A stretch of DNA of 49,837 nt from an uncultured Bdellovibrionales bacterium (GCA_964650155.1 CAZYRE010000003.1:1-49837), one strand, 5' to 3'; shown: positions 1,812 through 46,660, counted from the stretch's first letter. The notes: generated by a model from the sequence alone, not told the origin. A program made the numbers and translations.

Positions 1812-3619
1812 CGTTCGATCGCTCCCATGTCAACTCCAACTACCCCATCGGTATTGCCATCTTGCGGTCGCGGTGCTCCATAAATATCCTCCGCTGAAAC
1901 CACTACGGCAGCCGAATCTACGGCGGGACTACTCATAGCAGGCTTGAGAAATGCATTACTTGAAGGATTGATGCTTTCAAATTGAGGGTTAGTCATTAGC
2001 GATTGAGCATCTTTGCCCAAATTCTGCCAATTGGAAAATGAATATGAAGCTCCGGCATATGCAAATATCCAGGAGCTAGGCTGATTCGGAGCGTAGAAAA
2101 GATTGAAGTTCGATCGTATTCGAGAAAGTGGCATATCAAGTAACAACGCAGAACCCCAATTGGTAGAACTGGTTGAGTAATAAATATTATTCTTAAAATC
2201 TATTTTGTTAGACATGCTCTGAGCGTACAAAAAATGATGTTCGTTATTAACAGGAGTATCAGTATTGAAATAAGTATTATTTGCAATCGTGACATTTTGA
2301 CATCCACCAACTAATGGATGATTAGATAATGCAACTGCGGTTGCAGTATTTAGAAAAATATTATTTCTAATCGCAACTCCTCTAGCCGTGCAAAGAAAAC
2401 CTATGTTGGAAGCGGCTTGGCCTGGAGTGTGAATCAAGATGTTTTTTTGGGCTAAAATATTCGTTACATACTCTGTAGATTCATTATTCTGCGGTGCAAA
2501 CGTAGAGATTGCGCCCAAAGTATTCCCGGAAATAACAGCGAGATTATTATTCCCTCTTATTGTCACACTAGTGAATGTTTCCGGTATATTTACAATCTGA
2601 TTATGAGCAATAAATGTTTTTAGCCCGCCTTGAATTCTGATGGCATGCTGATTTAGATGAAGATCATGAATGTAGTTGTCTATCGCGGCAAACCTTGAAG
2701 ATCCGCCGTAAATTGCATACTGTCTTGAGTCCTGAACTTCCGATCCAATAATTGAAACCCCATCACTCGTTGTAGATCCTGCACCTAAATAAAATGCATT
2801 ACCATTCAACTTCTTTAACTCTAAATTACTCAAAGTAACATTTGAGCTTGATACAACAGATACTCCTGAAACTGTCGGGGAAGCTCCACTTTGCCAAGCG
2901 CCACTGATTGAAAAGTCGGCAATTGTGACATCATTAACACTATCGAGCCTTAATACCTCAGTCCAATTATCTCCATTTGAAACTAAATTTGGTTTGATTG
3001 GCTGAGGGGTGTTAGGTGAAGGAAATCCTCCAATAAACAATGGACCATTTAAATTTGAAATTTGCGCGGAATTCTGTTGCCACACCGCACCGCGATCAAA
3101 TAGGAGACGATTATTTACTGCGGCGTACTGTAATGCCTGAGAAAAGTTATCTGTTACGATTCTTCTGTTAGGATTTGTCGTTGGACATCCAACAAAGTTA
3201 TTCCGCAGAGTGGTTGAAAAGCAGTAAGTTTGCCCTTTACGCGGCATATACTCGACCGCTGGATCTAAAACAGTCACCTGAACCGGCACAGCTTCTGCAA
3301 CCACGCCTGTTCTATCTGTCACCGTCATTCTGATCGTGTATGTACCAGGATTTGGATAAACGTGCGCTGAAACAAATCCACTTTCCTGGCTGAAAGCATT
3401 AGTAGGATCTAGATTAGTTGCATCGAAATTAATTTGAATATCTGCATTTACCAAATCATCTCGAGTTAAGCCGGTAGTACCGCTTGCATCTGCAAAGATA
3501 GATAATGGAGCGACTCCTATTGTTCGGCTTAATTGTAAATTAGGGGTAATTAGAGGCTGCGCAAATAGATTAGTACTGAAAAAAAGTACGAAGACATACA
3601 ATAAGCGCCGAACAAGCAT
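1808..3619 (-). CDS. secreted PKD-domain / right-handed parallel beta-helix repeat protein
   Basis: Signal peptide MLVRRLLYVFVLFFSTNLFA. PKD-like NPGTYTIRMTVTDRTG. Many N-x-[ILV] beta-helix rungs (NVTLSNLEL, IHDLHLNQHAIRI, NNIFLN). C-terminal APRPQDG..DGVVGVDMGAIE tail typical of this class. Confidence 0.7.
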   Translation of the reverse strand: MLVRRLLYVFVLFFSTNLFAQPLITPNLQLSRTIGVAPLSIFADASGTTGLTRDDLVNADIQINFDATNLDPTNAFSQESGFVSAHVYPNPGTYTIRMTVTDRTGVVAEAVPVQVTVLDPAVEYMPRKGQTYCFSTTLRNNFVGCPTTNPNRRIVTDNFSQALQYAAVNNRLLFDRGAVWQQNSAQISNLNGPLFIGGFPSPNTPQPIKPNLVSNGDNWTEVLRLDSVNDVTIADFSISGAWQSGASPTVSGVSVVSSSNVTLSNLELKKLNGNAFYLGAGSTTSDGVSIIGSEVQDSRQYAIYGGSSRFAAIDNYIHDLHLNQHAIRIQGGLKTFIAHNQIVNIPETFTSVTIRGNNNLAVISGNTLGAISTFAPQNNESTEYVTNILAQKNILIHTPGQAASNIGFLCTARGVAIRNNIFLNTATAVALSNHPLVGGCQNVTIANNTYFNTDTPVNNEHHFLYAQSMSNKIDFKNNIYYSTSSTNWGSALLLDMPLSRIRSNFNLFYAPNQPSSWIFAYAGASYSFSNWQNLGKDAQSLMTNPQFESINPSSNAFLKPAMSSPAVDSAAVVVSAEDIYGAPRPQDGNTDGVVGVDMGAIER

Positions 3620-3827
3620 AAAACCCTTAGTAAAAAGACAAAAAAATTTATGATCTTACCGAGGATGACCAGACCAACCTGCACAATGAAGTGCAAATAC
3701 TGATCCAGCTGCGGGGCTAATCGTCTCTTGCCAGGGAACGACCTCCAAGCATAGTCGACGCATGACGTAACTCATTGTTTTGTTTAGGCTTTTATAAACC
3801 TAACATATTATGGTCGCTGCTTTGTTA

Positions 3828-4580
3828 CTACTGACTAAGCATCTGGGTTAAAGCTAAGGCTCTCTCAGGACTCATAAGTGCTAAGACCTGTGCAATCCTT
3901 TTCTCAGGCATCCGCTTCAATAGGGACAAAGAGATCGTTATATCAAGCTGCTCCATTAACTTAGCAGCCTCATCTGGAGCCATAGAGCTATAAACTTTTG
4001 AAAGTTGTTCGAGCTGTCCATCACGTCGACGATCTGTTTGATCTCGCTTAATCCTTAATTCATCAGTCAAAGATTTAAGCTCTGTTAATCTTGCAGCCAA
4101 CTCCATCTCTTTACGATCTAAATCCTTTTCTCTGTCTGATAACTTTTCATCACGAGCCTCTAGTTCTGCACGTCTTGAATCAAGTTGAGTTAAGATCTCT
4201 ACCTCTTCCCGACTAAATGTATTTGGAACAGCCAATTCAGATAATGCCGTACGTGGCATAGAAGCTTGAGATGCTTGTGCCACTGGAATCTCGGTAATAC
4301 CTGAGTACTCAATCAAACTGAGCCCAATCTTAGTTAGACCTAATAGCGCAATTAAACCGATTGCAAGATTATTTCCACTCATAGGAAGGGAGATGTTTTT
4401 GAACATATTTATTTTCGTCATCTCTCCAGAGAGCCTGGCTCTAGCAGCGCTTACATACTTTTTCTTTGTAGGAGAAGAAGTAGGAGTGTCCCCTTCGTTC
4501 ATCTTATGTAGAGTTTTTTGAAGATCTTTATATAGCTCAGCCGCTTGTTCTCTCGTTAACCCTTTGTTCTCTTTTGCCAT
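3828..4580 (-). CDS. flagellar MotE/FlbB/YlxF-like protein (single TM helix, coiled coil, MgtE_N-like C-terminus)
   Basis: Lies directly after fliJ, as ylxF does in Bacillus-type fla operons. TM segment LAIGLIALLGLTKIGLSLI, a charged coiled coil, and C-terminal PDEAAKLMEQL...KRIAQVLALMSPERALALTQML resembling the MgtE N-terminal domain. Confidence 0.6.
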   Translation of the reverse strand: MAKENKGLTREQAAELYKDLQKTLHKMNEGDTPTSSPTKKKYVSAARARLSGEMTKINMFKNISLPMSGNNLAIGLIALLGLTKIGLSLIEYSGITEIPVAQASQASMPRTALSELAVPNTFSREEVEILTQLDSRRAELEARDEKLSDREKDLDRKEMELAARLTELKSLTDELRIKRDQTDRRRDGQLEQLSKVYSSMAPDEAAKLMEQLDITISLSLLKRMPEKRIAQVLALMSPERALALTQMLSQ

Positions 4581-29989: not shown

Positions 29990-30769
29990 CTAACTAGTTG
30001 CTGTGCCGAGTAATACACCATTCTCAACAAACATATTCAAAGCAATTCGACACATTTGAGAATGGTGCTCAATGTTAGAATTAATACCAAGATCAATAAT
30101 TGAGGCCTCAAAAGCATCCGCCCAGGAGCAGTTCCTACTTATAATTATATCGAGAACATTTAAAACTAGTGGTGAAAGCTCACAATATTTAACAATGTCA
30201 GTAGTAATATCTCTGTAAGTTAATAAAAAATACCTGCCGGAGACCTGAGAAGAATTTTTTAATTCTTCAATGCTCATTCTAAAAACAGGATACATTAAAG
30301 CGCTAACTTGATGCACAGGATTAATTATTATTGCTTCATTCCATGGATCAACAGACTTTTTAAATGAAGGTAATTCTATCTCTGGCATCATGCCTACTTC
30401 AATTTCTACCCACTCAAACTCAAGTAGATCTCTTAAGTATGGGAACTCCGCTGCTTTCCATTCAGAGTTTTCAACAAAATTAAGTAATTCTCTAGGCATC
30501 TGCCATAGCTGGGGCGAAGGACATGGATGTGAAGATACAAATGTACTGATTAAATCATCCCAGATATTTTTACCAAGAACCCGTTTTGCAATTGGATAAG
30601 CTCTCGCTAGAGCATCCTGAAAGCCACCAAATATTAAGTCGCGATATACTGCTACCCGCTCATGCGAAGAAATTCCAGGGATATTGTAAGATTTCTTTGT
30701 TAAACAGAATCTCACCATCTCACGTTGATATCTCTTGAAATCTGAAGAGGAATCACTACTAGGCAGCAT
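29990..30769 (-). CDS. DUF2063-family protein (HvfC/BufC-like partner of MNIO enzymes)
   Basis: RVAVYRDLIFGGFQDALARAYPIAKRVLGKNIWDDLISTFVSSHPCPSPQLWQMPRELLNFV fits the DUF2063 N-terminal pattern (YRN..., FP...LG, ...P). Its start overlaps the DUF692 stop by 11 nt. Confidence 0.75.
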   Translation of the reverse strand: MLPSSDSSSDFKRYQREMVRFCLTKKSYNIPGISSHERVAVYRDLIFGGFQDALARAYPIAKRVLGKNIWDDLISTFVSSHPCPSPQLWQMPRELLNFVENSEWKAAEFPYLRDLLEFEWVEIEVGMMPEIELPSFKKSVDPWNEAIIINPVHQVSALMYPVFRMSIEELKNSSQVSGRYFLLTYRDITTDIVKYCELSPLVLNVLDIIISRNCSWADAFEASIIDLGINSNIEHHSQMCRIALNMFVENGVLLGTATS

Positions 30770-31607
30770 TAGCTAAGCTCCAACGAGTATCAACGATTTT
30801 CTGTAGCCTTAACATCTCATCAGCTAATTCTGCAGCCTCAGGAAAATTAAAATCTCTCTCAAGTAGAACAGGGACCTCTCTTACATACTGTAAGGTCCAA
30901 TCAAATAAATCAAAAACTGGTTCAATTATCGGACGACCGTGTGTGTCAATTATTAGGTCTTCTCCTCTCTTCTCATGTCCTGCCATATGTATATAGGCTA
31001 TCTTTTCGAGTGGCAGCGCTTTCAAAAATTTTCGAGCATCATAATTATGATTAAAGCTATTAACGTAAACATTATTTACATCAAGGAGGAGAAGGCAGCC
31101 TGATTCTTTAACAACGGCAGATATAAATTCTGCTTCATCCAATGTCGGGGCAATGGGTGTATAATATGAAATGTTTTCAACAGCTATTTGCTGACCCAAA
31201 AAATCCTGAACCTCTCTAATTCTATCAGATACGTGTTTGACTGCCTCTTCACAAAATGGAATTGGTAGAAGGTCATATAGATGTGCGTTGTCACATTTAT
31301 TAAAGCTTAAATGTTCTGAATAAAGCTGTACGTTATATACGCTCAAAAAATCTTTAACTTGTTTTAAAAATTCCCAGTCGAGAGGTTCTGGACTTCCCAA
31401 TGATAAGGAAAGGCCGTGGCAGGTTATTGGATATTTCTCTGTCACGGCCTTTAGCGTTTTGCCCCATTTGCCTCCGATATTCATCCAATTCTCAGGTGCC
31501 AGCTCAACAAACCTAGGATTCAGGGCATCCTGAGAAAGTAAACTCTCTGCAAGATCTCTTCTAAATCCTAATCCAACTCCTGAAATTTTTTGCTTTTCGA
31601 TAAGCAT
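30759..31607 (-). CDS. DUF692-family multinuclear non-heme iron oxidase (MNIO; MbnB/HvfB/BufB-like)
   Basis: TIM-barrel DUF692 motifs: VGLGFRRDL, VELAPENW, HGLSLSLGS, YSEHLSF, AVENISYY, LLLDVNNVYVNSFNHNYD, YIHMAGH. AAGGAAG RBS. Confidence 0.88.
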   Translation of the reverse strand: MLIEKQKISGVGLGFRRDLAESLLSQDALNPRFVELAPENWMNIGGKWGKTLKAVTEKYPITCHGLSLSLGSPEPLDWEFLKQVKDFLSVYNVQLYSEHLSFNKCDNAHLYDLLPIPFCEEAVKHVSDRIREVQDFLGQQIAVENISYYTPIAPTLDEAEFISAVVKESGCLLLLDVNNVYVNSFNHNYDARKFLKALPLEKIAYIHMAGHEKRGEDLIIDTHGRPIIEPVFDLFDWTLQYVREVPVLLERDFNFPEAAELADEMLRLQKIVDTRWSLANAA

Positions 31608-31637
31608 TTTCTTCCTTAGGGCAAACTAGATATGGAA

Positions 31638-31952
31638 TTAATGGGAACCAGTCTCACCCTCGCCCATGTCCATATCGCCACATTTACCTTCGCCGCATTT
31701 TCCTTCGGCAGTCTTTTCGTCTTTCTTCTCATCTCCACATTTACCTTCCCCACATTTACCTTCAGCATCCTTTTCATGATGCTCAGCATAAACTGGCACA
31801 TTCTGGGAATCAGAAGTTAAAATTGTAGAGCGAACTTGCATGGCAGCACCAAGATCTCTCACAGCGAATGTTTGTGATGCTTGAGCAACACCTGACATCA
31901 AGACTGAAACTGTGACAGCAGAAACAGCGCCCTTTCCTAATCTAATCTTCAT
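31638..31952 (-). CDS. secreted EGKCG-repeat peptide/protein, putative MNIO substrate (HvfA/oxazolin-like)
   Basis: Sec signal MKIRLGKGAVSAVTVSVLMSGVAQA. Two EGKCGEGKCGD blocks (Cys67, 72, 86, 91) sit in a Glu/Lys/His/Asp-rich tail ending DMDMGEGETGSH. It lies 30 nt upstream of the DUF692 gene on the same strand. AGGAA RBS. Confidence 0.8.
   Translation of the reverse strand: MKIRLGKGAVSAVTVSVLMSGVAQASQTFAVRDLGAAMQVRSTILTSDSQNVPVYAEHHEKDAEGKCGEGKCGDEKKDEKTAEGKCGEGKCGDMDMGEGETGSH
31674..31763 (-). repeat. two 33-nt coding repeats (31731..31763 and 31674..31706), each encoding EGKCGEGKCGD
   Basis: The plus strand shows ccacatttaccttc(c/g)cc(a/g)cat(tt)t(a/t)ccttc twice. The internal half-repeat GKCG-E-GKCG gives four GKCG units in all. 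Confidence 0.9.
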
Positions 31953-32148: not shown

Positions 32149-33315
32149 ATGAACTATCCAATTCAATTAAACAATTTTGAGATTGATGCTCAAAAGGGAT
32201 TCTTGCCAGCCACTGATCCTTTACGAACATTAGGTAGTGAATTTACTCCCTGGGAGGATGCCGCGCAGAACCTTCCTAAACTACTCGTAACAGACCGAAT
32301 ACGAGAAATTTTAAAACGCATGCCGAGTCTGGACCCAACAGATCTGAAAACACGAGCTGAACTCGAACGTGGCATGATGCTTCTCTCGTATCTGGGGCAT
32401 GGATATGTCTGGGGTGAAAAATCTATTGATCCAATCTTACCTTCCAACATAGCTGTACCTTGGCATGCAATCGCCTCAAAACTTGGTCGCCCTCCTGTGC
32501 TATCGTACGCTTCTTACGCGCTGTGGAATTGGCAGAGAATCGATTCATCTGGTCCTATTGCGTTAGGAAATATAGCCCTGCAACAGAATTTCTTAGCCGG
32601 TGTTGATGAAGAGTGGTTTATTTTAATTCATATAGATATCGAAGCAAAAGCTGCGAAAGCTATTACCTCCATCCCTGAGGCACTAACAGCACGGGATCAA
32701 AATGACATTCAGAACATGATTGTGGTGCTGAAAAATATCTCTACGTCTTTAAACGCTATAAACGCCACGATGGATAGAATGCCTGAGCATTGCGATCCAT
32801 ACATTTATTACAATAGAGTTCGTCCTTACATCCACGGTTGGAAAGATAATCCGGCTTTACCTAATGGGTTAATTTACGAGGGAGTCACCGCCTACGCTGG
32901 TAAGCCTCAAAAATTTCGTGGCGAGACTGGAGCTCAAAGCTCTATTGTTCCTGCTATTGATGCGATTCTAGGTATCAGCCACGACGACGACCCGCTCCGT
33001 CAGTATCTTAATGAAATGCGAGAATACATGCCTCCAGCCCATAATAATTTTATTAAAGCAGTCGAATCCGCTGGCTCAATTCGTGAATTGGTCAAAAAAC
33101 ACGCTAGCACTAACGTAGAACTTAGAACGTTATATAATAAGTCAGTTGAAGAGATTGAAAAGTTTAGAACTACGCACCTAACTTACGCTGCTAACTATAT
33201 TAATAAGCAGAAACAAACAAGTGAAGCTAATCCAACAGGTGTCGGAACTGGTGGCACTCCATTTATGGTTTATTTAAAGAAACATCGGGATGAGAGTACA
33301 AAACACTTTCTATAA
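32149..33315 (+). CDS. indoleamine 2,3-dioxygenase (IDO)-family heme dioxygenase
   Basis: Close motif matches to animal/fungal IDO: GETGAQSSIVPAIDAILGI (IDO1 GGSAGQSSVFQCFDVLLGI), MREYMPPAHNNFI (MRRYMPPAHRNFL), proximal-His helix FRTTHLTYAANYI (LRSYHLQIVTKYI) and GTGGTPFMVYLKKHRD (GTGGTDLMNFLKTVR). Confidence 0.9.
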   Translation: MNYPIQLNNFEIDAQKGFLPATDPLRTLGSEFTPWEDAAQNLPKLLVTDRIREILKRMPSLDPTDLKTRAELERGMMLLSYLGHGYVWGEKSIDPILPSNIAVPWHAIASKLGRPPVLSYASYALWNWQRIDSSGPIALGNIALQQNFLAGVDEEWFILIHIDIEAKAAKAITSIPEALTARDQNDIQNMIVVLKNISTSLNAINATMDRMPEHCDPYIYYNRVRPYIHGWKDNPALPNGLIYEGVTAYAGKPQKFRGETGAQSSIVPAIDAILGISHDDDPLRQYLNEMREYMPPAHNNFIKAVESAGSIRELVKKHASTNVELRTLYNKSVEEIEKFRTTHLTYAANYINKQKQTSEANPTGVGTGGTPFMVYLKKHRDESTKHFL

Positions 33316-41847: not shown

Positions 41848-42345
41848 TTATTCCAAAGTATCTTCAGTCGTATAACCCTGGCGAGTTACTGTGGCCCCTG
41901 AATCAACTATAAGCGCGCCACTTAATTGTAATTCTTCTAAGACATCAGCAATTGCCAATGCTTCCGGAATGCCTTTTCTCACTTTGTCAGCGCATTGATC
42001 AGTGTTTGAAAAGACAAGGTTTATAATTGCACTACCTTCATCTACGCAATCACAGAAAAGTGTGCCTGTAATTCTACCGCATATTTCAATCCAGATAATA
42101 CTTTTAGACATGCCGCACACTTTACCTTTAGGACACGTAACAGGCTCAGTATCTCCGTAATTACATTTTACGGCGCCAGCTTTATATTGATTTGCGGTAA
42201 AGTCATGTGTTCCATAATTTTTATTGGCAGTAGAACCAGCATTCCCGGTTCCATGAAACCCACACGTATCGGCATTGGCAAATGATGATATGCAAGTAAA
42301 TGCGAAAAGAGACAGAGTAATGAATTTAATTGATTTTCTAGTCAT
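41848..42345 (-). CDS. small secreted Cys-rich protein (8 Cys in the mature part)
   Basis: Signal peptide MTRKSIKFITLSLFAFTCISSFANA, with cysteines spread through the mature chain. No family recognised. Last gene of the Tra-like string. Confidence 0.5.
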   Translation of the reverse strand: MTRKSIKFITLSLFAFTCISSFANADTCGFHGTGNAGSTANKNYGTHDFTANQYKAGAVKCNYGDTEPVTCPKGKVCGMSKSIIWIEICGRITGTLFCDCVDEGSAIINLVFSNTDQCADKVRKGIPEALAIADVLEELQLSGALIVDSGATVTRQGYTTEDTLE

Positions 42346-42521
42346 AACCTTACTTAACTTTATCTAAGTTTATAAAACCGGAGTGTTGATTCAGAAATTT
42401 CAATTCTGATCTAAAAATCCAGTTACAAGTAAGAATGACTAGCTTCCCCCAGCAGCAATATGCTGCCCTCTAAACTGTTATGGTTTATTCACTCAAAATA
42501 GTGACAAATTATTTAATATTT

Positions 42522-43232
42522 TTAAGAAGGATCGCTCTGCAAAATATTTCGCAATCCGGCAGCGTCACCAAAGGGATTATCAAGTCCTTCCACTAACACC
42601 TCACCTTCTGGAAAACCAAAGATCCAAGTCGGAGATCTTTTGATTGCGTACTGAGGTGGTACTGCATTAAGACGGTGAATAAGAGGAAATTGGGGAATTA
42701 CGTCCTTCAGTACACCACTTTCTTTGAGGGCTTTATAGCCATCACCAATAAGATAGATGTTATCTATCCGAGCGTGTGCTTTTTTTGAAAATCTAGCAAG
42801 TTTATCAATATATTTTTGAGCATGAGTACGTCTACTGCCATCAACGATTAGGCCAATTGTTTTAAACTTATAATCACCGGATGAAATCTCAGTTTCTTCC
42901 TCACTCTTCTTGAAAAACCTCTCTAACCTCATCTGTGCTCTATGATCAGATGCTGGATTGTATTCTTTCCGTTTCTCTGCAGCCTTTAACTGAGCCTCTT
43001 TTATTATTGAAAGCGTGTCTCTAGGTTGCTCATCTGCATGTGATACATCTTCTTGGGTAAATTCGTCATCATAAGTAGACTCGACTTCTCTTTCCTTCGC
43101 AATCCCAGTAACAAATCCTGATTCAAAAAAAGTACTTGAGCTATGATCATGGTCATTACTCCGTTCGGCATGAGCAGGTGCGGAAACAACTGCGGTAAAA
43201 AATATAACCTTTATTGGTAACAATTTATCCAT
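42522..43232 (-). CDS. secreted protein, TrbC/TraW-like C-terminal domain (tentative)
   Basis: Signal peptide ending APAHA. TIGLIVDGS...IYLIGDG...LNAVPPQYAIKRSPTWIF parallels F-plasmid TrbC (ALYFVSFS...DPTLFSQYGIRSVPALVV). Confidence 0.4.
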   Translation of the reverse strand: MDKLLPIKVIFFTAVVSAPAHAERSNDHDHSSSTFFESGFVTGIAKEREVESTYDDEFTQEDVSHADEQPRDTLSIIKEAQLKAAEKRKEYNPASDHRAQMRLERFFKKSEEETEISSGDYKFKTIGLIVDGSRRTHAQKYIDKLARFSKKAHARIDNIYLIGDGYKALKESGVLKDVIPQFPLIHRLNAVPPQYAIKRSPTWIFGFPEGEVLVEGLDNPFGDAAGLRNILQSDPS

Positions 43233-43242
43233 ACGATCACCT

Positions 43243-44553
43243 TTAATCTCTACAGCACCCTATAAACTTCCAATGTGTAACTACTGCCGTGCCTGGATTT
43301 CTATTCAAATCAAATGAGGACATTCCTAAAGTTGCAGCCCCAGCCATTCCTGCAGGTAGGCACATATGACCCATCGCCATTGGCCGAAGCCACTGGAGCT
43401 TATCTGCTGGATACGTAAAATCGATTGCTTTGAGCAACCCTTCCACTTTGGCCGAAGTATTAATTGCTTTTATTGCTGCAATTCCAGCTACCGAAAGATC
43501 CGTCATCACATCGTGTCCGTACATAGTTACAGGGCGTGCTCTTCCCCATCCGGGCACACAGGCAAGCTCTCCAGGAGGATTCACAATGGTACCGCCATCT
43601 CCACCAATTACATCCACAAGCGGTTGCAGAAAGTCAGGGCTGTAACCATTATCAATATTTTGCTGAGTACACATGAGCGGATTCTCTTCAAGATCACTCA
43701 TCTCACTGTCGAAGTTCGCTACGCTCCAGCCAACATTACGAGCAGGTTCTGCCATTGCTGCAATATCACTAAACCGTTCAGCTGGTACAATTCCAACGTG
43801 ACAGAGATCTTCGAACTTATCACTCTCATTCATTCTCAATTCTGTTGCAGAATCAGTTGCTAACTCGGATGAATATTCAGCATAGTCTCCGAATGAGGAC
43901 ATGCCGAATGCCCAAGCCATCTGAGCCAACGTTGGGGTTAGGTGGTAATCACGCACTGTCATACCACCATCACTCCCATGTAAGAATCTCATAGACTCAG
44001 GAAGTTCCTCCACTCGGGGATCAATCTCTTGTGCAGTCAATTCCTCTCCCCCTACTAGTCGTGATGCTCGCTTTATCCCATCTACCGCGTATTTTGGAGC
44101 TTTGCCGTAATGCCCATCCCCAGATTTCTTTTCATACTCAGGATTAAACTCTTCATACATATCTTTAGTGGCGTACTGAGTTTCCGAAAAATTACCGATG
44201 TTCACTGTGTTTACTGGCCACCAGTAAAGATGCAGATCAGAAAATTCACACCCCATTGTGATGGTAACTAGACTCATACAAGCATCAAAGTTAGATCCGA
44301 AGTGAATATCAGCATCATCCTCATAGGCCTGCACAACGTCATCACTTTCAGCGCCACCATAGAACTGATTATTAATGGTATTTCTCGCTCTTCCTACAAC
44401 CTTTGCCTTAGTGATCATCTGAGCTTTCTGCTTTGCCATATTTATATAGCTATCAGTGCTGGGAGCAATTCCGCCAAGTCCCTGGGAATGCGCACTGGAT
44501 ATAATAAAAATCGAAAGCACCTGGATCTTGATGACAGCATGTAAGAATTTCAT
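43243..44553 (-). CDS. TraU-family-like secreted protein (tentative)
   Basis: Several blocks parallel F TraU in the same order: LHLYWWPVNTVN against YHVHWYKYPLTYWLN, CVPGWGRARPVTMYGHDV against WCAGSQGSMYPFNGWV, LQWLRPMAMGHMCLPAG against WRYQMVNMYPDSGQCHPFG, and NPGTAVVTHWKFIGCC against NPPNTKKNFGYLMWRKRNC. Preferred start is the ATG at 44553 (MKFLHAVIKIQVLSIFIISSAHS signal), which forms an ATGA overlap with the upstream stop. The track start is 44592. Confidence 0.5.
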   Translation of the reverse strand: MKFLHAVIKIQVLSIFIISSAHSQGLGGIAPSTDSYINMAKQKAQMITKAKVVGRARNTINNQFYGGAESDDVVQAYEDDADIHFGSNFDACMSLVTITMGCEFSDLHLYWWPVNTVNIGNFSETQYATKDMYEEFNPEYEKKSGDGHYGKAPKYAVDGIKRASRLVGGEELTAQEIDPRVEELPESMRFLHGSDGGMTVRDYHLTPTLAQMAWAFGMSSFGDYAEYSSELATDSATELRMNESDKFEDLCHVGIVPAERFSDIAAMAEPARNVGWSVANFDSEMSDLEENPLMCTQQNIDNGYSPDFLQPLVDVIGGDGGTIVNPPGELACVPGWGRARPVTMYGHDVMTDLSVAGIAAIKAINTSAKVEGLLKAIDFTYPADKLQWLRPMAMGHMCLPAGMAGAATLGMSSFDLNRNPGTAVVTHWKFIGCCRD

Positions 44554-45206
44554 TGTGAGACTCCTGCCGATAGAGCATCTGTCCCATACCATCTTTCAAT
44601 TGCATTTCCCGTTAGTCGAATACGATAAGGTAGACACGGTATTTTTTGATCAAGCGCCGTTAAAGTAGGGATGCTGCCGCTCCCACGACTAAACTCCCTA
44701 ATATCTACGCCTTTAAGAAATTCTCTTTCTTGTTCACTAATGGTTCCGCTTCTTACATACAGAACATCATAACTCCCGGTTTTTGATTTTCGTGGAGTAG
44801 CATCTATACGACTCTCATTACAATTTGGGATATCTCTCTTTAGCTTTGCACCAAGTTGCCCTGATGCCTTCTTCTGTTCATACTCTTTGGCGACTTTTCT
44901 TCGCTTTGCTTTAGGTAGGTGATGATTTCTTAGCTTGGGAGTCTTAATGTCTATAACAACTCCTTCATTAAACCGAAATATTTTTAGTATCTTTGTGGAC
45001 CTTGGATTTAAAAGATTATTCAAAATATTGGGGAGGCGAGTTTTAAGACCACTTGAAATCGCAGCAGCATCTTTCTGCTGCATAGCTCCAGTTCTAACCA
45101 GAGCTTCTAGAGTAGTTGTAGGATTCGGAGTATCAGCGAGGACAGTGCCACCAAAGCAGCAAGGTAACTGAACTACGAGTAAGACTAAAACGCCACATAA
45201 CCTCAT
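44550..45206 (-). CDS. secreted protein in the TraW position, TraW-like (tentative)
   Basis: Signal peptide MRLCGVLVLLVVQLPCCFGGTVLA. 218 aa, against about 210 aa for F TraW as I recall it. DVLYVRSGTISEQEREFL...LDQKIPCLPYRIRL loosely parallels TraW TLYFINGDDPAQVAWM...LGIDQVPARV. Lies immediately upstream of the TraU-like gene, as in F. Confidence 0.35.
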   Translation of the reverse strand: MRLCGVLVLLVVQLPCCFGGTVLADTPNPTTTLEALVRTGAMQQKDAAAISSGLKTRLPNILNNLLNPRSTKILKIFRFNEGVVIDIKTPKLRNHHLPKAKRRKVAKEYEQKKASGQLGAKLKRDIPNCNESRIDATPRKSKTGSYDVLYVRSGTISEQEREFLKGVDIREFSRGSGSIPTLTALDQKIPCLPYRIRLTGNAIERWYGTDALSAGVSQ

Positions 45207-45431
45207 TTTGACTAACCTTTAATGTGGGAAATTCTCCCACAGATGTTATGATACGTTACTTTTGAATGTAACTTAGGGCAGCAGCTATGCTGTGCTCATG
45301 TAGTAGCTAGTGTTGAGAAGGAAATAATAAATCCCTAAAGCGCAAATCCATTGTGCAATCAGCATGTTAGGAATATTTATAGTGACCAAACACTATCCTA
45401 GAGTACAAAACTATAGACATACTCATATTTT

Positions 45432-45476
45432 CGGAATATACTCCGAAAATATGTCACTTTTTCGGAGTATATTCCG
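45432..45476 (+). promoter_or_regulatory. perfect 18-bp inverted repeat (9-nt loop) covering the RBS of the ATPase gene
   Basis: CGGAATATACTCCGAAAA (45432..45449) and TTTTCGGAGTATATTCCG (45459..45476). Each arm is itself a near-palindrome (TTCGGA-N6-TCCGAA). The right arm contains the only GGAG upstream of the TTG start at 45479. Confidence 0.5.
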
Positions 45477-45478
45477 CC

Positions 45479-46660
45479 TTGATAGATAGAGCCATTAACA
45501 TCCTAAAAGGACACTCATTTTTCTTGTTTGGCGCTAGAGGAACAGGGAAAAGTACCCTTCTAGATAAGTTGCTCCATGAACAGAGGTGCCTATGGATAGA
45601 CCTTCTTATTGCTAAGGAAGAAGCCCGTTATGCTAGTGACCCAGATCTACTTAGTAAGCAAATCGAGCTACACAAAGGGGAGCTTGATTGGGTAATTATT
45701 GATGAGGTTCAAAAAGTTCCTCGACTATTAGACATCGTCCATCGTGAAATTGAAATAAAGAATAGGAAAGGCGCGATTCCAAACTTTGCACTCAGTGGCT
45801 CTAGTGCCCGCAAGCTCAAAAGACAGGGGGCCAATCTTCTTGCTGGCCGAGCATTAGTCTACCATTTACATCCTTTTACACACTTAGAGTTAGGCAGCAA
45901 TTTTAATTTAGAACAAGCACTTTTTTACGGAACTATTCCTTCAATTAACAAATACGACGACCCACAGGCCAAACAACTAGCACTAGAGGCCTATGTTGAA
46001 ACGTATCTGAAAGAAGAAATCATCGCTGAGCAAATCGTTCGAAATATTCAACCCTTTAGAAGATTTTTGAACATTGCAGCTCAATCAAATGGCGCTATTA
46101 TCAATTATAATCAGATTGCAACCGATGTTAAGGCAGATGATAAAACTGTCAAAACTTACTTCGATATACTTGAAGACACATTACTAGGATTCACTCTGCC
46201 GGCTTACGATAAATCTCTTCGCAAACAACAAGGAAAATCTCCAAAATTCTATCTTTTTGATACTGGAGTTAAACGAATACTCGACCTAAATTTACCTGCT
46301 TCAGGAGAATTTACCTCCCAAGAATTTGGTCTGGCATTTGAGCACTTCGTGATCTGCGAATTTTTTCGACTTAAAAGTTATGCTAGAAGCAAAATGCAAT
46401 TCTCACATTTTAATACGGGAGAGAGTGAAATCGATCTGGTCATAGAAGCTCCTCGTCATCCGGACATTTTTATTGAGATTAAATCCACTGAAGAAGTTCA
46501 AGACAGGCATCTTACAACCTTATTTCGAATGCAAAAAGAATTTCCAAAGTTCGAGTATTACTGTCTCTCACGTGATCCTATCGAAAGAAAAGAAAAGGGA
46601 ATTGTTATTTTACCTTGGCAGATTGGAATCAAAAAAATCTTTGAGAAAATAAATACCTAG
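45479..46660 (+). CDS. AAA-family ATPase with a DUF4143 C-terminal domain (AAA_14/DUF4143 type)
   Basis: Walker A FGARGTGKST and Walker B VIIDEVQKVP. The later layout (YVETYLKEEI...IAAQSNGAIINYNQIA...YLFDTGV) is typical of AAA_14 + DUF4143 proteins. TTG start; no in-frame upstream alternative. Confidence 0.8.
   Translation: MIDRAINILKGHSFFLFGARGTGKSTLLDKLLHEQRCLWIDLLIAKEEARYASDPDLLSKQIELHKGELDWVIIDEVQKVPRLLDIVHREIEIKNRKGAIPNFALSGSSARKLKRQGANLLAGRALVYHLHPFTHLELGSNFNLEQALFYGTIPSINKYDDPQAKQLALEAYVETYLKEEIIAEQIVRNIQPFRRFLNIAAQSNGAIINYNQIATDVKADDKTVKTYFDILEDTLLGFTLPAYDKSLRKQQGKSPKFYLFDTGVKRILDLNLPASGEFTSQEFGLAFEHFVICEFFRLKSYARSKMQFSHFNTGESEIDLVIEAPRHPDIFIEIKSTEEVQDRHLTTLFRMQKEFPKFEYYCLSRDPIERKEKGIVILPWQIGIKKIFEKINT

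Follow-up and report, generated by a model that had tools for sequence, protein, structure and literature searches.

Within a 49,837-bp contig of an uncultured Bdellovibrionales bacterium (GCA_964650155.1, CAZYRE010000003.1:1-49837), analysed over its entire length and hereafter called the window, four co-directional open reading frames (ORFs), g1 to g4, occupy positions 41848-45206 of the minus strand. Our comparative analysis revealed that the first three constitute a conserved operon, which is probably a stand-alone periplasmic module and a very distant relative of the TraU and TrbC proteins outside conjugation. TraU (PF06834) is a periplasmic pilus-assembly and DNA-transfer protein of the F-type (MPF_F, for mating-pair formation) and G-type (MPF_G) type IV secretion systems (T4SSs). 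In the F system, TraU, TraW and TrbC form a group of interacting periplasmic proteins on which pilus assembly and transfer depend (PMC12999216, PMC4027160), in which TrbC binds the TraW N-terminus and is itself required for F-pilus assembly (PMC12999216). The only reported homologues of these three proteins are those of MPF_F and MPF_G systems (PMC4027160), and their molecular roles are regarded as unresolved (PMC12999216). A first-pass annotation of the window had read g1 to g4 as a copy of the traW-traU-trbC-traN order, being either the decayed remnant of an integrative-conjugative element (ICE) or F-type region, or a repurposed periplasmic module.

A three-gene operon conserved at eight loci

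The four ORFs are present as annotated, and each protein begins with a Sec-like N-terminus in which a basic n-region is followed by a hydrophobic core and an AxA-like site, identified by direct reading and not by a predictor; the signal peptides thus read are MKFLHAVIKIQVLSIFIISSAHS, cleaved before QG, in g2, and MDKLLPIKVIFFTAVVSAPAHA, cleaved before ER, in g3. Moreover, the overlap announced for the first pair was seen in the sequence, where the g1 stop and the g2 start share an ATGA (context CAATGAAA). The gap between g2 and g3 is 8 nt, and that between g3 and g4 is 176 nt.

The loci compared were the contigs encoding g2 homologues plus one match in a GTDB genome, a metagenome-assembled genome (MAG; CAZKXU01) of an uncultured Bdellovibrionales bacterium, which is the only taxonomically labelled locus other than the window. 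The g1-g2-g3 order recurs at all eight loci with enough sequence (the window, L003, L006, L007, L010, L011, L013, and L014), with intact frames, while g2 identity falls to ~21%. Homologues of g1 lie directly 5' of g2 at L003, L006, L010, L011, L013, and L014 (tblastn E 1e-9 to 2e-4), and a g3 homologue stands directly 3' of g2 at all seven whole-triad loci besides the window; the g1-like genes encode ~220-300 aa (129 aa at L007) and the g3-like genes ~200-240 aa. Most triad junctions are overlapping or near-abutting, and the translational coupling of g1 to g2 is also found in L003. When 255 ORF segments from these loci were compared all against all by BLASTP, g1, g2 and g3 were the only genes common to the eight, the remaining neighbours being common to the closest relatives only. 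By tblastn, g4 was found only in L004, a 97%-identical relative, and was absent from the seven other loci, with L003 having other genes at its position; therefore, the unit is a three-gene operon and not the four-gene string first described.

Regarding the conservation within g1, its motifs are I-x-x-Y-R-G-x-E-G, L-P-x-C and, near the C-terminus, C-[LV]-P-[YF]-R-[IV]-R. At L007, the 129-aa gene 5' of g2 (3616-4005) matches the N-terminal half of g1 only and is devoid of the C-[LV]-P-[YF]-R-[IV]-R end; to judge from this copy, the C-terminal half of g1 may be dispensable in that lineage. At L011, the g2 homologue P0008 (10001-12124) is 707 aa long and has a ~270-aa insertion following the conserved YHLTPT, and g1 is also longer (304 aa). 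L013 and L014 carry a divergent triad sub-family (g2 proteins P0009 and P0010), with g2 ~22% identical to that of the window. The datasets SRR12358676 and SRR14271375 yielded L002 plus L013 and L004 plus L014, respectively, L002 and L004 being window-type copies; GC content is similar in L013/L014 and L002/L004 (0.39-0.41), and some genomes may harbor two paralogous triads.

The family is rare. HMMER, run exhaustively over 1.84 billion cluster representatives, returned eight g2 clusters in total, and a word-indexed search of 5.8 billion proteins found g2 itself and one 46% relative, nothing more. Single-sequence and fragment scans with Pfam, NCBIfam and PADLOC gave no match for g1 to g4; Pfam and NCBIfam likewise matched none of nine g2-family members and, at E<=10, gave nothing relevant for ten g1/g3 homologues, and no curated family of Pfam or NCBIfam covers g1, g2 or g3.

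The ratio of nonsynonymous to synonymous substitution rates (dN/dS), estimated between the window and L003 at a dS of ~0.7-1.0, was 0.12 for g1, 0.036 for g2 and 0.20 for g3, with 0.04-0.06 for two flanking genes; the triad is thus under purifying selection, with the strongest constraint on g2. These values bear on the idea that the locus is what decay has left of an ICE or F-type transfer region, for which it may be said that the genes look orphaned, with no T4SS partners in the window. Since such low ratios go together with intact frames and an operon kept in eight lineages down to ~21% identity, a decaying remnant is as good as ruled out; the translational coupling kept in the window and L003 and the differing chromosomal contexts of the triad further contradict it, leaving a reading that can hardly be credited. 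The other option of the first-pass annotation, a repurposed periplasmic module, fits the data.

Weak similarities between g2 and TraU and between g3 and TrbC

The protein g2 contains eight Cys residues, of which three are invariant in the family alignment, and its C-terminal ~115 aa carry C-x4-G-x3-P-h-T, D-K-x-Q-W, C-x-P-x-G and a terminal W-K-x3-C-C. For its part, g3 starts with a signal peptide, continues with a linker (~residues 25-120) that is charged and poorly conserved, and has at its C-terminus a beta-alpha-beta domain of ~110 aa with an S-P-T-W-I motif resembling a cis-Pro loop and no CxxC. The motifs first quoted for both proteins are where they were said to be, namely C398-L-P-A-G, N419-P and W428-K-F-I-G-C-C in g2, facing C294-H-P-F-G, N309-P and W322-R-K-R-N-C in F TraU, and Q194-Y-A-I-K-R-S-P in g3, facing Q157-Y-G-I-R-T-V-P in F TrbC. 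Across 13 TraU and nine g2 sequences, an ordered set is shared (C-x4-G-x3-P-h-[TNS], a K-[AL] helix, [DK]-[KR]-x-[QR]-[WY], C-x-P-x-G, and the terminal W-[KR]-x3-C-C), with identical spacing in C-x4-G-x3-P and W-[KR]-x3-C-C; as this set was defined after seeing both families, the match has no independent statistical weight.

Profile-profile tests with hhalign were performed on eight alignment variants, the Tra alignments being drawn from F, Legionella pLPL, R27, an IncC plasmid, and plasmids of Burkholderia, Bermanella, Acinetobacter, Leisingera, and Enterobacter. The comparison of g2 with TraU gave a median P of 0.0225 (range 0.006-0.064) over 60-115 C-terminal columns, and that of g3 with TrbC a median P of 0.0056 (range 0.0031-0.01, in all eight variants). 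These two pre-specified pairs were the best of all cross-family comparisons, and their order is that of traU-trbC; apart from g3-TraW, the other pairings of the triad proteins with Tra families had median P values of 0.34-0.5 each (0.021-0.75 overall), and 20 extra controls against TraF, TrbB, TraH, TrbI, and TraN gave P values of 0.18-0.87. The g3-TraW value (median P 0.08, range 0.03-0.12) fits a known relationship, since TraW and TrbC share a short motif region (hhalign TraW-TrbC P=1.7e-4). By our own calculation, the Fisher combination of the two cognate median P values is ~0.001.

Decoys and rankings agreed with this direction. The g2-TraU score of 31.1 topped every one of 100 block-shuffled templates and 99 of 100 that were fully shuffled, and the g3-TrbC score of 24.7 topped 200 of 200 shuffled ones. 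Likewise, both g2 sub-families aligned separately to the same C-terminal part of TraU (P 0.0055 and 0.0042). When a TraU hidden Markov model (HMM) was run over the 255 ORFs of these loci, the g2 of L013 ranked first (9.0 bits, E 0.008) and that of L014 second, and a TrbC HMM placed the g3 of L003 first and that of the window second, but at E ~1. Among the g2 proteins, the P0009/P0010 sub-family is the closest to TraU.

Several results weigh against a relationship with the Tra proteins. The Pfam and NCBIfam models of TraU matched none of nine g2-family members or eight motif-bearing fragments at E<=10; the TrbC_Ftype model (PF09673) matched neither the window g3 at E<=1 nor five other g3 proteins at E<=10; and those of TraW found no match in the g1 family. 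BLASTP of g1, g2 and g3 against F TraW, TraU and TrbC stayed at noise level, and tblastn of P0009, the most TraU-like member, against 72,556 plasmids returned no match at E<=10. The hhalign probabilities were only 1-10% (1-8% for g2-TraU), the g2-TraU P shifted tenfold with the alignment, and g1 showed no similarity to TraW (median P 0.415, range 0.2-0.71). Structure prediction with AlphaFold2 gave a g2 model (8-sequence alignment) with a mean predicted local distance difference test (pLDDT) score of 50.5 and a g3 model (3-sequence alignment, pLDDT 44) with the secondary-structure order beta-alpha-beta-alpha-beta, both too poor for a fold test. A Foldseek search of this g2 model against the PDB had no match at E<1, and PDB sequence searches with TraU and g2 profiles found no solved relatives. 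Finally, a generic thioredoxin-like fold, and not specific TrbC ancestry, could be the source of the g3-TrbC signal.

In this context, the triad might be a lineage-specific periplasmic unit unrelated to Tra, its motifs having arisen by chance or convergence (e.g., Cys-rich C-termini) and its TrbC signal being that of a generic beta-alpha-beta fold. Every curated HMM scan was negative, hhalign probabilities did not exceed 10% and the g2-TraU P rose to 0.064 with trimmed alignments, g1 and g4 have no Tra similarity, and g2 is 100-370 aa longer than TraU, with only the last ~115 residues aligning; all this favors such a unit. Nevertheless, g2-TraU and g3-TrbC head all cross-family pairs in the traU-trbC gene order, the TraU and TrbC HMMs place the cognate family first and second of 255 real ORFs, and identically spaced motifs, including the terminal W-[KR]-x3-C-C, are shared, so that we regard an unrelated triad as on the unlikely side, and the chances that g2 is really a very remote homologue of TraU, and g3 of TrbC, as somewhat better than even, on evidence that is suggestive and directionally specific. 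The likeness to TraU and TrbC put forward in the first-pass annotation hence holds in part and below the usual thresholds: profile-profile comparison and HMM ranking single out TraU for g2 and TrbC for g3, and curated models do not. At HMMER sensitivity there was no profile-level similarity, so that by the refuting condition stated in that annotation the claim fails at this level; hhalign gave a weak signal.

The flanking genes g1 and g4

The similarity of g1 to TraW and of g4 to TraN, which would complete the F-type order, was not borne out. A TraW HMM left g1 outside the top 40 of the 255 ORFs, in line with the hhalign range reported above, and NCBIfam scans of triad members for the ICE families PFL_4709-4711 (TIGR03755-03757) gave no match at E<=10. 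Because the tests single out TraU for g2 and TrbC for g3, and neither TraW nor TraN, synteny with F would at best be a two-gene traU-trbC correspondence with a non-homologous or unrecognisable 5' partner; the traU-trbC part of the proposed four-gene synteny may thus stand in this restricted sense, and the traW and traN parts have no support.

TraN is a large (~600 aa), Cys-rich outer-membrane protein for mating-pair stabilisation in F-type systems. As an analogue of it, g4 was rejected, with an hhalign P of 0.32, a length of 165 aa, and its presence solely in L004, the 97%-identical relative. Next to the triad, small exported proteins rich in Cys turn up repeatedly with no homology to each other; two Cys-rich secreted proteins of 187 and 186 aa, unrelated to g4, are encoded 3' of the triad in L003 (6819-8024, minus strand).

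Genomic settings of the triad

Pfam scans of 31 window ORFs, including all those >150 aa, detected no T4SS, relaxase or integrase domains, confirming the lack of T4SS machinery first noticed. What they did detect were flagellar FliF, FliH and FliI along with sigma-54 regulators; glycosyltransferases, some of them large and others of the Maf-like and GT9 types, together with a Wzt ABC ATPase and a methyltransferase; and an AAA_14/DUF4143 ATPase, an NAD-glutamate dehydrogenase, a malic enzyme and an IDO protein. Beside the triad at the eight loci, no T4SS genes (tra/trb/virB, VirB4/TraC or coupling protein), relaxase or integrase were found, the flanks covered being the whole window and 0.7-10 kb per side at the seven other loci. 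The neighbours differ by locus: in the Bdellovibrionales MAG, the triad lies between tatA/tatC plus pseudopilin genes and murC-murB-ftsQAZ, and elsewhere it adjoins pgpA and PGI, MTHFR, or an aminotransferase gene. GC content runs flat along the triad, with no deviation.

A further point to be set against a T4SS-independent module is that the loci are contigs and not complete genomes, so that a T4SS elsewhere in the genome is possible. Accordingly, the triad could be an ordinary but very divergent traW-traU-trbC block of an F/G-type T4SS or ICE that is complete and has its genes dispersed. Dispersal has a precedent in R27, where trhW/trhU/trhN are ~17 kb from trhC on the plasmid, and the window is the whole of its contig. 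Against this, eight independent loci with up to 10 kb per side revealed no tra/trb/virB genes, relaxase or integrase; the neighbours are core metabolism and cell-division genes; GC content does not deviate over the unit; and the neighbourhoods vary by lineage, a pattern that befits chromosomal genes and not an island. Moreover, known TraU proteins from systems of different proteobacterial groups, 29-56% identical, are recovered down to the most divergent at E ~1e-40, whereas g2 is undetectable. A dispersed T4SS is consequently improbable.

The surroundings of the window also raise the possibility that the triad is an accessory of the adjoining flagellin-glycosylation/flagellar island, since in both the window and L011 Maf-like and GT9 glycosyltransferases are encoded no more than a few kb away from it, with FliS in L011 and flagellar genes in the window. 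L003, L006, L007, L010, L013, and L014, by contrast, lack flagellar and glycosyltransferase genes in the sequence covered, and membership of such an island, which we consider very improbable, was rejected as synteny specific to a lineage, the window and L011 being closely related.

Other features of the window

The features of the window are listed in Table 1. The triad promoter presumably lies in the divergent intergenic region that separates g1 from the AAA_14/DUF4143 gene on the opposite strand; no consensus sigma-70 site was found there on the minus strand, and a promoter and terminator consensus scan gave counts no higher than in shuffled sequence. The same region holds a perfect 18-nt inverted repeat (CGGAATATACTCCGAAAA / TTTTCGGAGTATATTCCG) with a 9-nt spacer, directly preceding the TTG start of the AAA_14/DUF4143 gene. 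The repeat is kept in L003 (2983-3027) with an identical T-to-C change in each arm, and because both arms carry the matching change, its sequence suggests an operator or an RNA hairpin. The AAA_14/DUF4143 ATPase itself has a match in PADLOC, to the candidate defence family PDC-S01 (E 4e-58), and such a gene is found near the triad, besides the window, only in L003 and L011.

Table 1. Positions of the triad, its surroundings and other features described in the window.
Feature	Position	Strand	Description
g1	45206..44550	minus	218 aa; exported (signal peptide read from sequence); heads the triad
g2	44553..43243	minus	436 aa; exported (sequence reading), Cys-containing; core of the triad
g3	43232..42522	minus	236 aa; exported (sequence reading)
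g4	42345..41848	minus	165 aa; Cys-rich, exported (sequence reading); neighbour only
Divergent intergenic region	45207..45478		from g1 to the oppositely oriented AAA_14/DUF4143 gene
Inverted repeat	45432-45476		within the divergent region
AAA_14/DUF4143 ATPase	45479-46660	plus	candidate defence family match
RiPP-type cluster	29990-31952	minus	precursor, DUF692 enzyme and DUF2063 partner
RiPP precursor	31638-31952		104 aa
MbnB/TglH/ChrH (DUF692) enzyme	30759-31607		Pfam E 3.5e-100
DUF2063 partner	29990-30769		
Indoleamine 2,3-dioxygenase homologue	32149-33315	plus	Pfam IDO, E 8.8e-110

Farther from the triad, the window encodes a cluster of the ribosomally synthesised and post-translationally modified peptide (RiPP) type, whose precursor combines a signal peptide with EGKCGEGKCG repeats, and which we take to be a bufferin-type RiPP. 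A bacterial indoleamine 2,3-dioxygenase homologue is also present (Table 1).

Proposed function and significance

Directly supported by our data are the gene order, the translational coupling, the export signals (as read), the strict co-conservation, the purifying selection, and the absence of T4SS neighbours. By analogy with F, we propose a function in periplasmic assembly or stabilisation. The three proteins g1, g2 and g3 would be Sec-exported to the periplasm, where they most likely form one complex. In it, g2 would act as a disulfide-stabilised scaffold, a very distant relative of TraU; g3 would contribute a CxxC-less thioredoxin-like binding domain of the TrbC_Ftype kind, borne on a flexible charged linker; and g1 would be a lineage-specific third partner at the traW position. 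Such a module would aid the assembly or stabilisation of an envelope structure other than a conjugative T4SS. Taken jointly with the rest of this explanation, the view that the triad is an autonomous operon, passed on vertically in bacteria of the Bdellovibrionota type, has about an even chance of being correct.

Bdellovibrionales is an order known for predatory bacteria. A more specific proposal, tentative and short of even chances, is that Bdellovibrionota chromosomes carry a self-contained module of the TraU-TrbC type with no T4SS, being either a domesticated F/G-type fragment or the survivor of a non-conjugative ancestor. As a domesticated fragment, it could have been re-used for another envelope machine, e.g., a predation-related pilus or an invasion structure; as an ancestor's survivor, it could represent the source from which the "F-specific" periplasmic assembly proteins were recruited.

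In the literature searched, we found nothing on TraU/TrbC-like genes outside T4SS loci. If the proposed relationship is true, the periplasmic sub-assembly function would be separable from DNA transfer, operating with no secretion ATPase, pilin or relaxase, and the triad would offer a simpler system for learning the actual role of TraU-like and TrbC-like proteins. Were the homology false, the triad would still be a strictly co-conserved, uncharacterised envelope module devoid of Pfam domains.

Comparison with known systems

The ICE proteins PFL_4709/4710/4711 (TIGR03757/03756/03755) of MPF_G systems are likewise three exported proteins in a run, one of them TraU-like; their genes sit in ICEs with a VirB4 gene, relaxase and integrase, whereas none of these was found beside the triad. 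With TraW (TIGR02743/PF12477), g1 shares its size (about 210-220 aa), an export signal and a position 5' of, and overlapping, a TraU-like gene, and its short C-[LV]-P-[YF]-R-[IV] recalls the TraW Q-V-P-A-R-V; it differs in having no statistical similarity to TraW.

The resemblance of g3 to TrbC_Ftype is broader, including a similar size, the succession of signal peptide, variable linker and C-terminal ~110-aa domain, the absence of CxxC in both, and a gene placed directly after the TraU-like gene. Furthermore, the order of elements is alike (a beta strand, a helix, a '[VI]-x-L-x-G' strand, 'x-Y-x-I-x-x-[SV]-P-x-x-[IV]', and 'G-x-x-x-V-x-G'). By contrast, g3 has S-P-T-W-I where TrbC has V-P-A-h-V, and it is accompanied by neither a recognisable TraW partner nor a T4SS context.

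Finally, members of the g2 family are 436-707 aa in length versus ~330 aa for TraU, the N-terminal two-thirds of g2 are unalignable, and g2 genes never adjoin traC/virB4 or T4SS genes, being confined to a few Bdellovibrionota-like metagenomic lineages. As in TraU, on the other hand, g2 is Sec-exported and contains Cys, its gene lies immediately 5' of a TrbC-like gene, and its C-terminal ~115 residues are collinear with TraU. In brief, the triad is most fittingly classed with the TraU/TrbC periplasmic module, as a new variant independent of a T4SS, with the caveat that the homology is sub-threshold.

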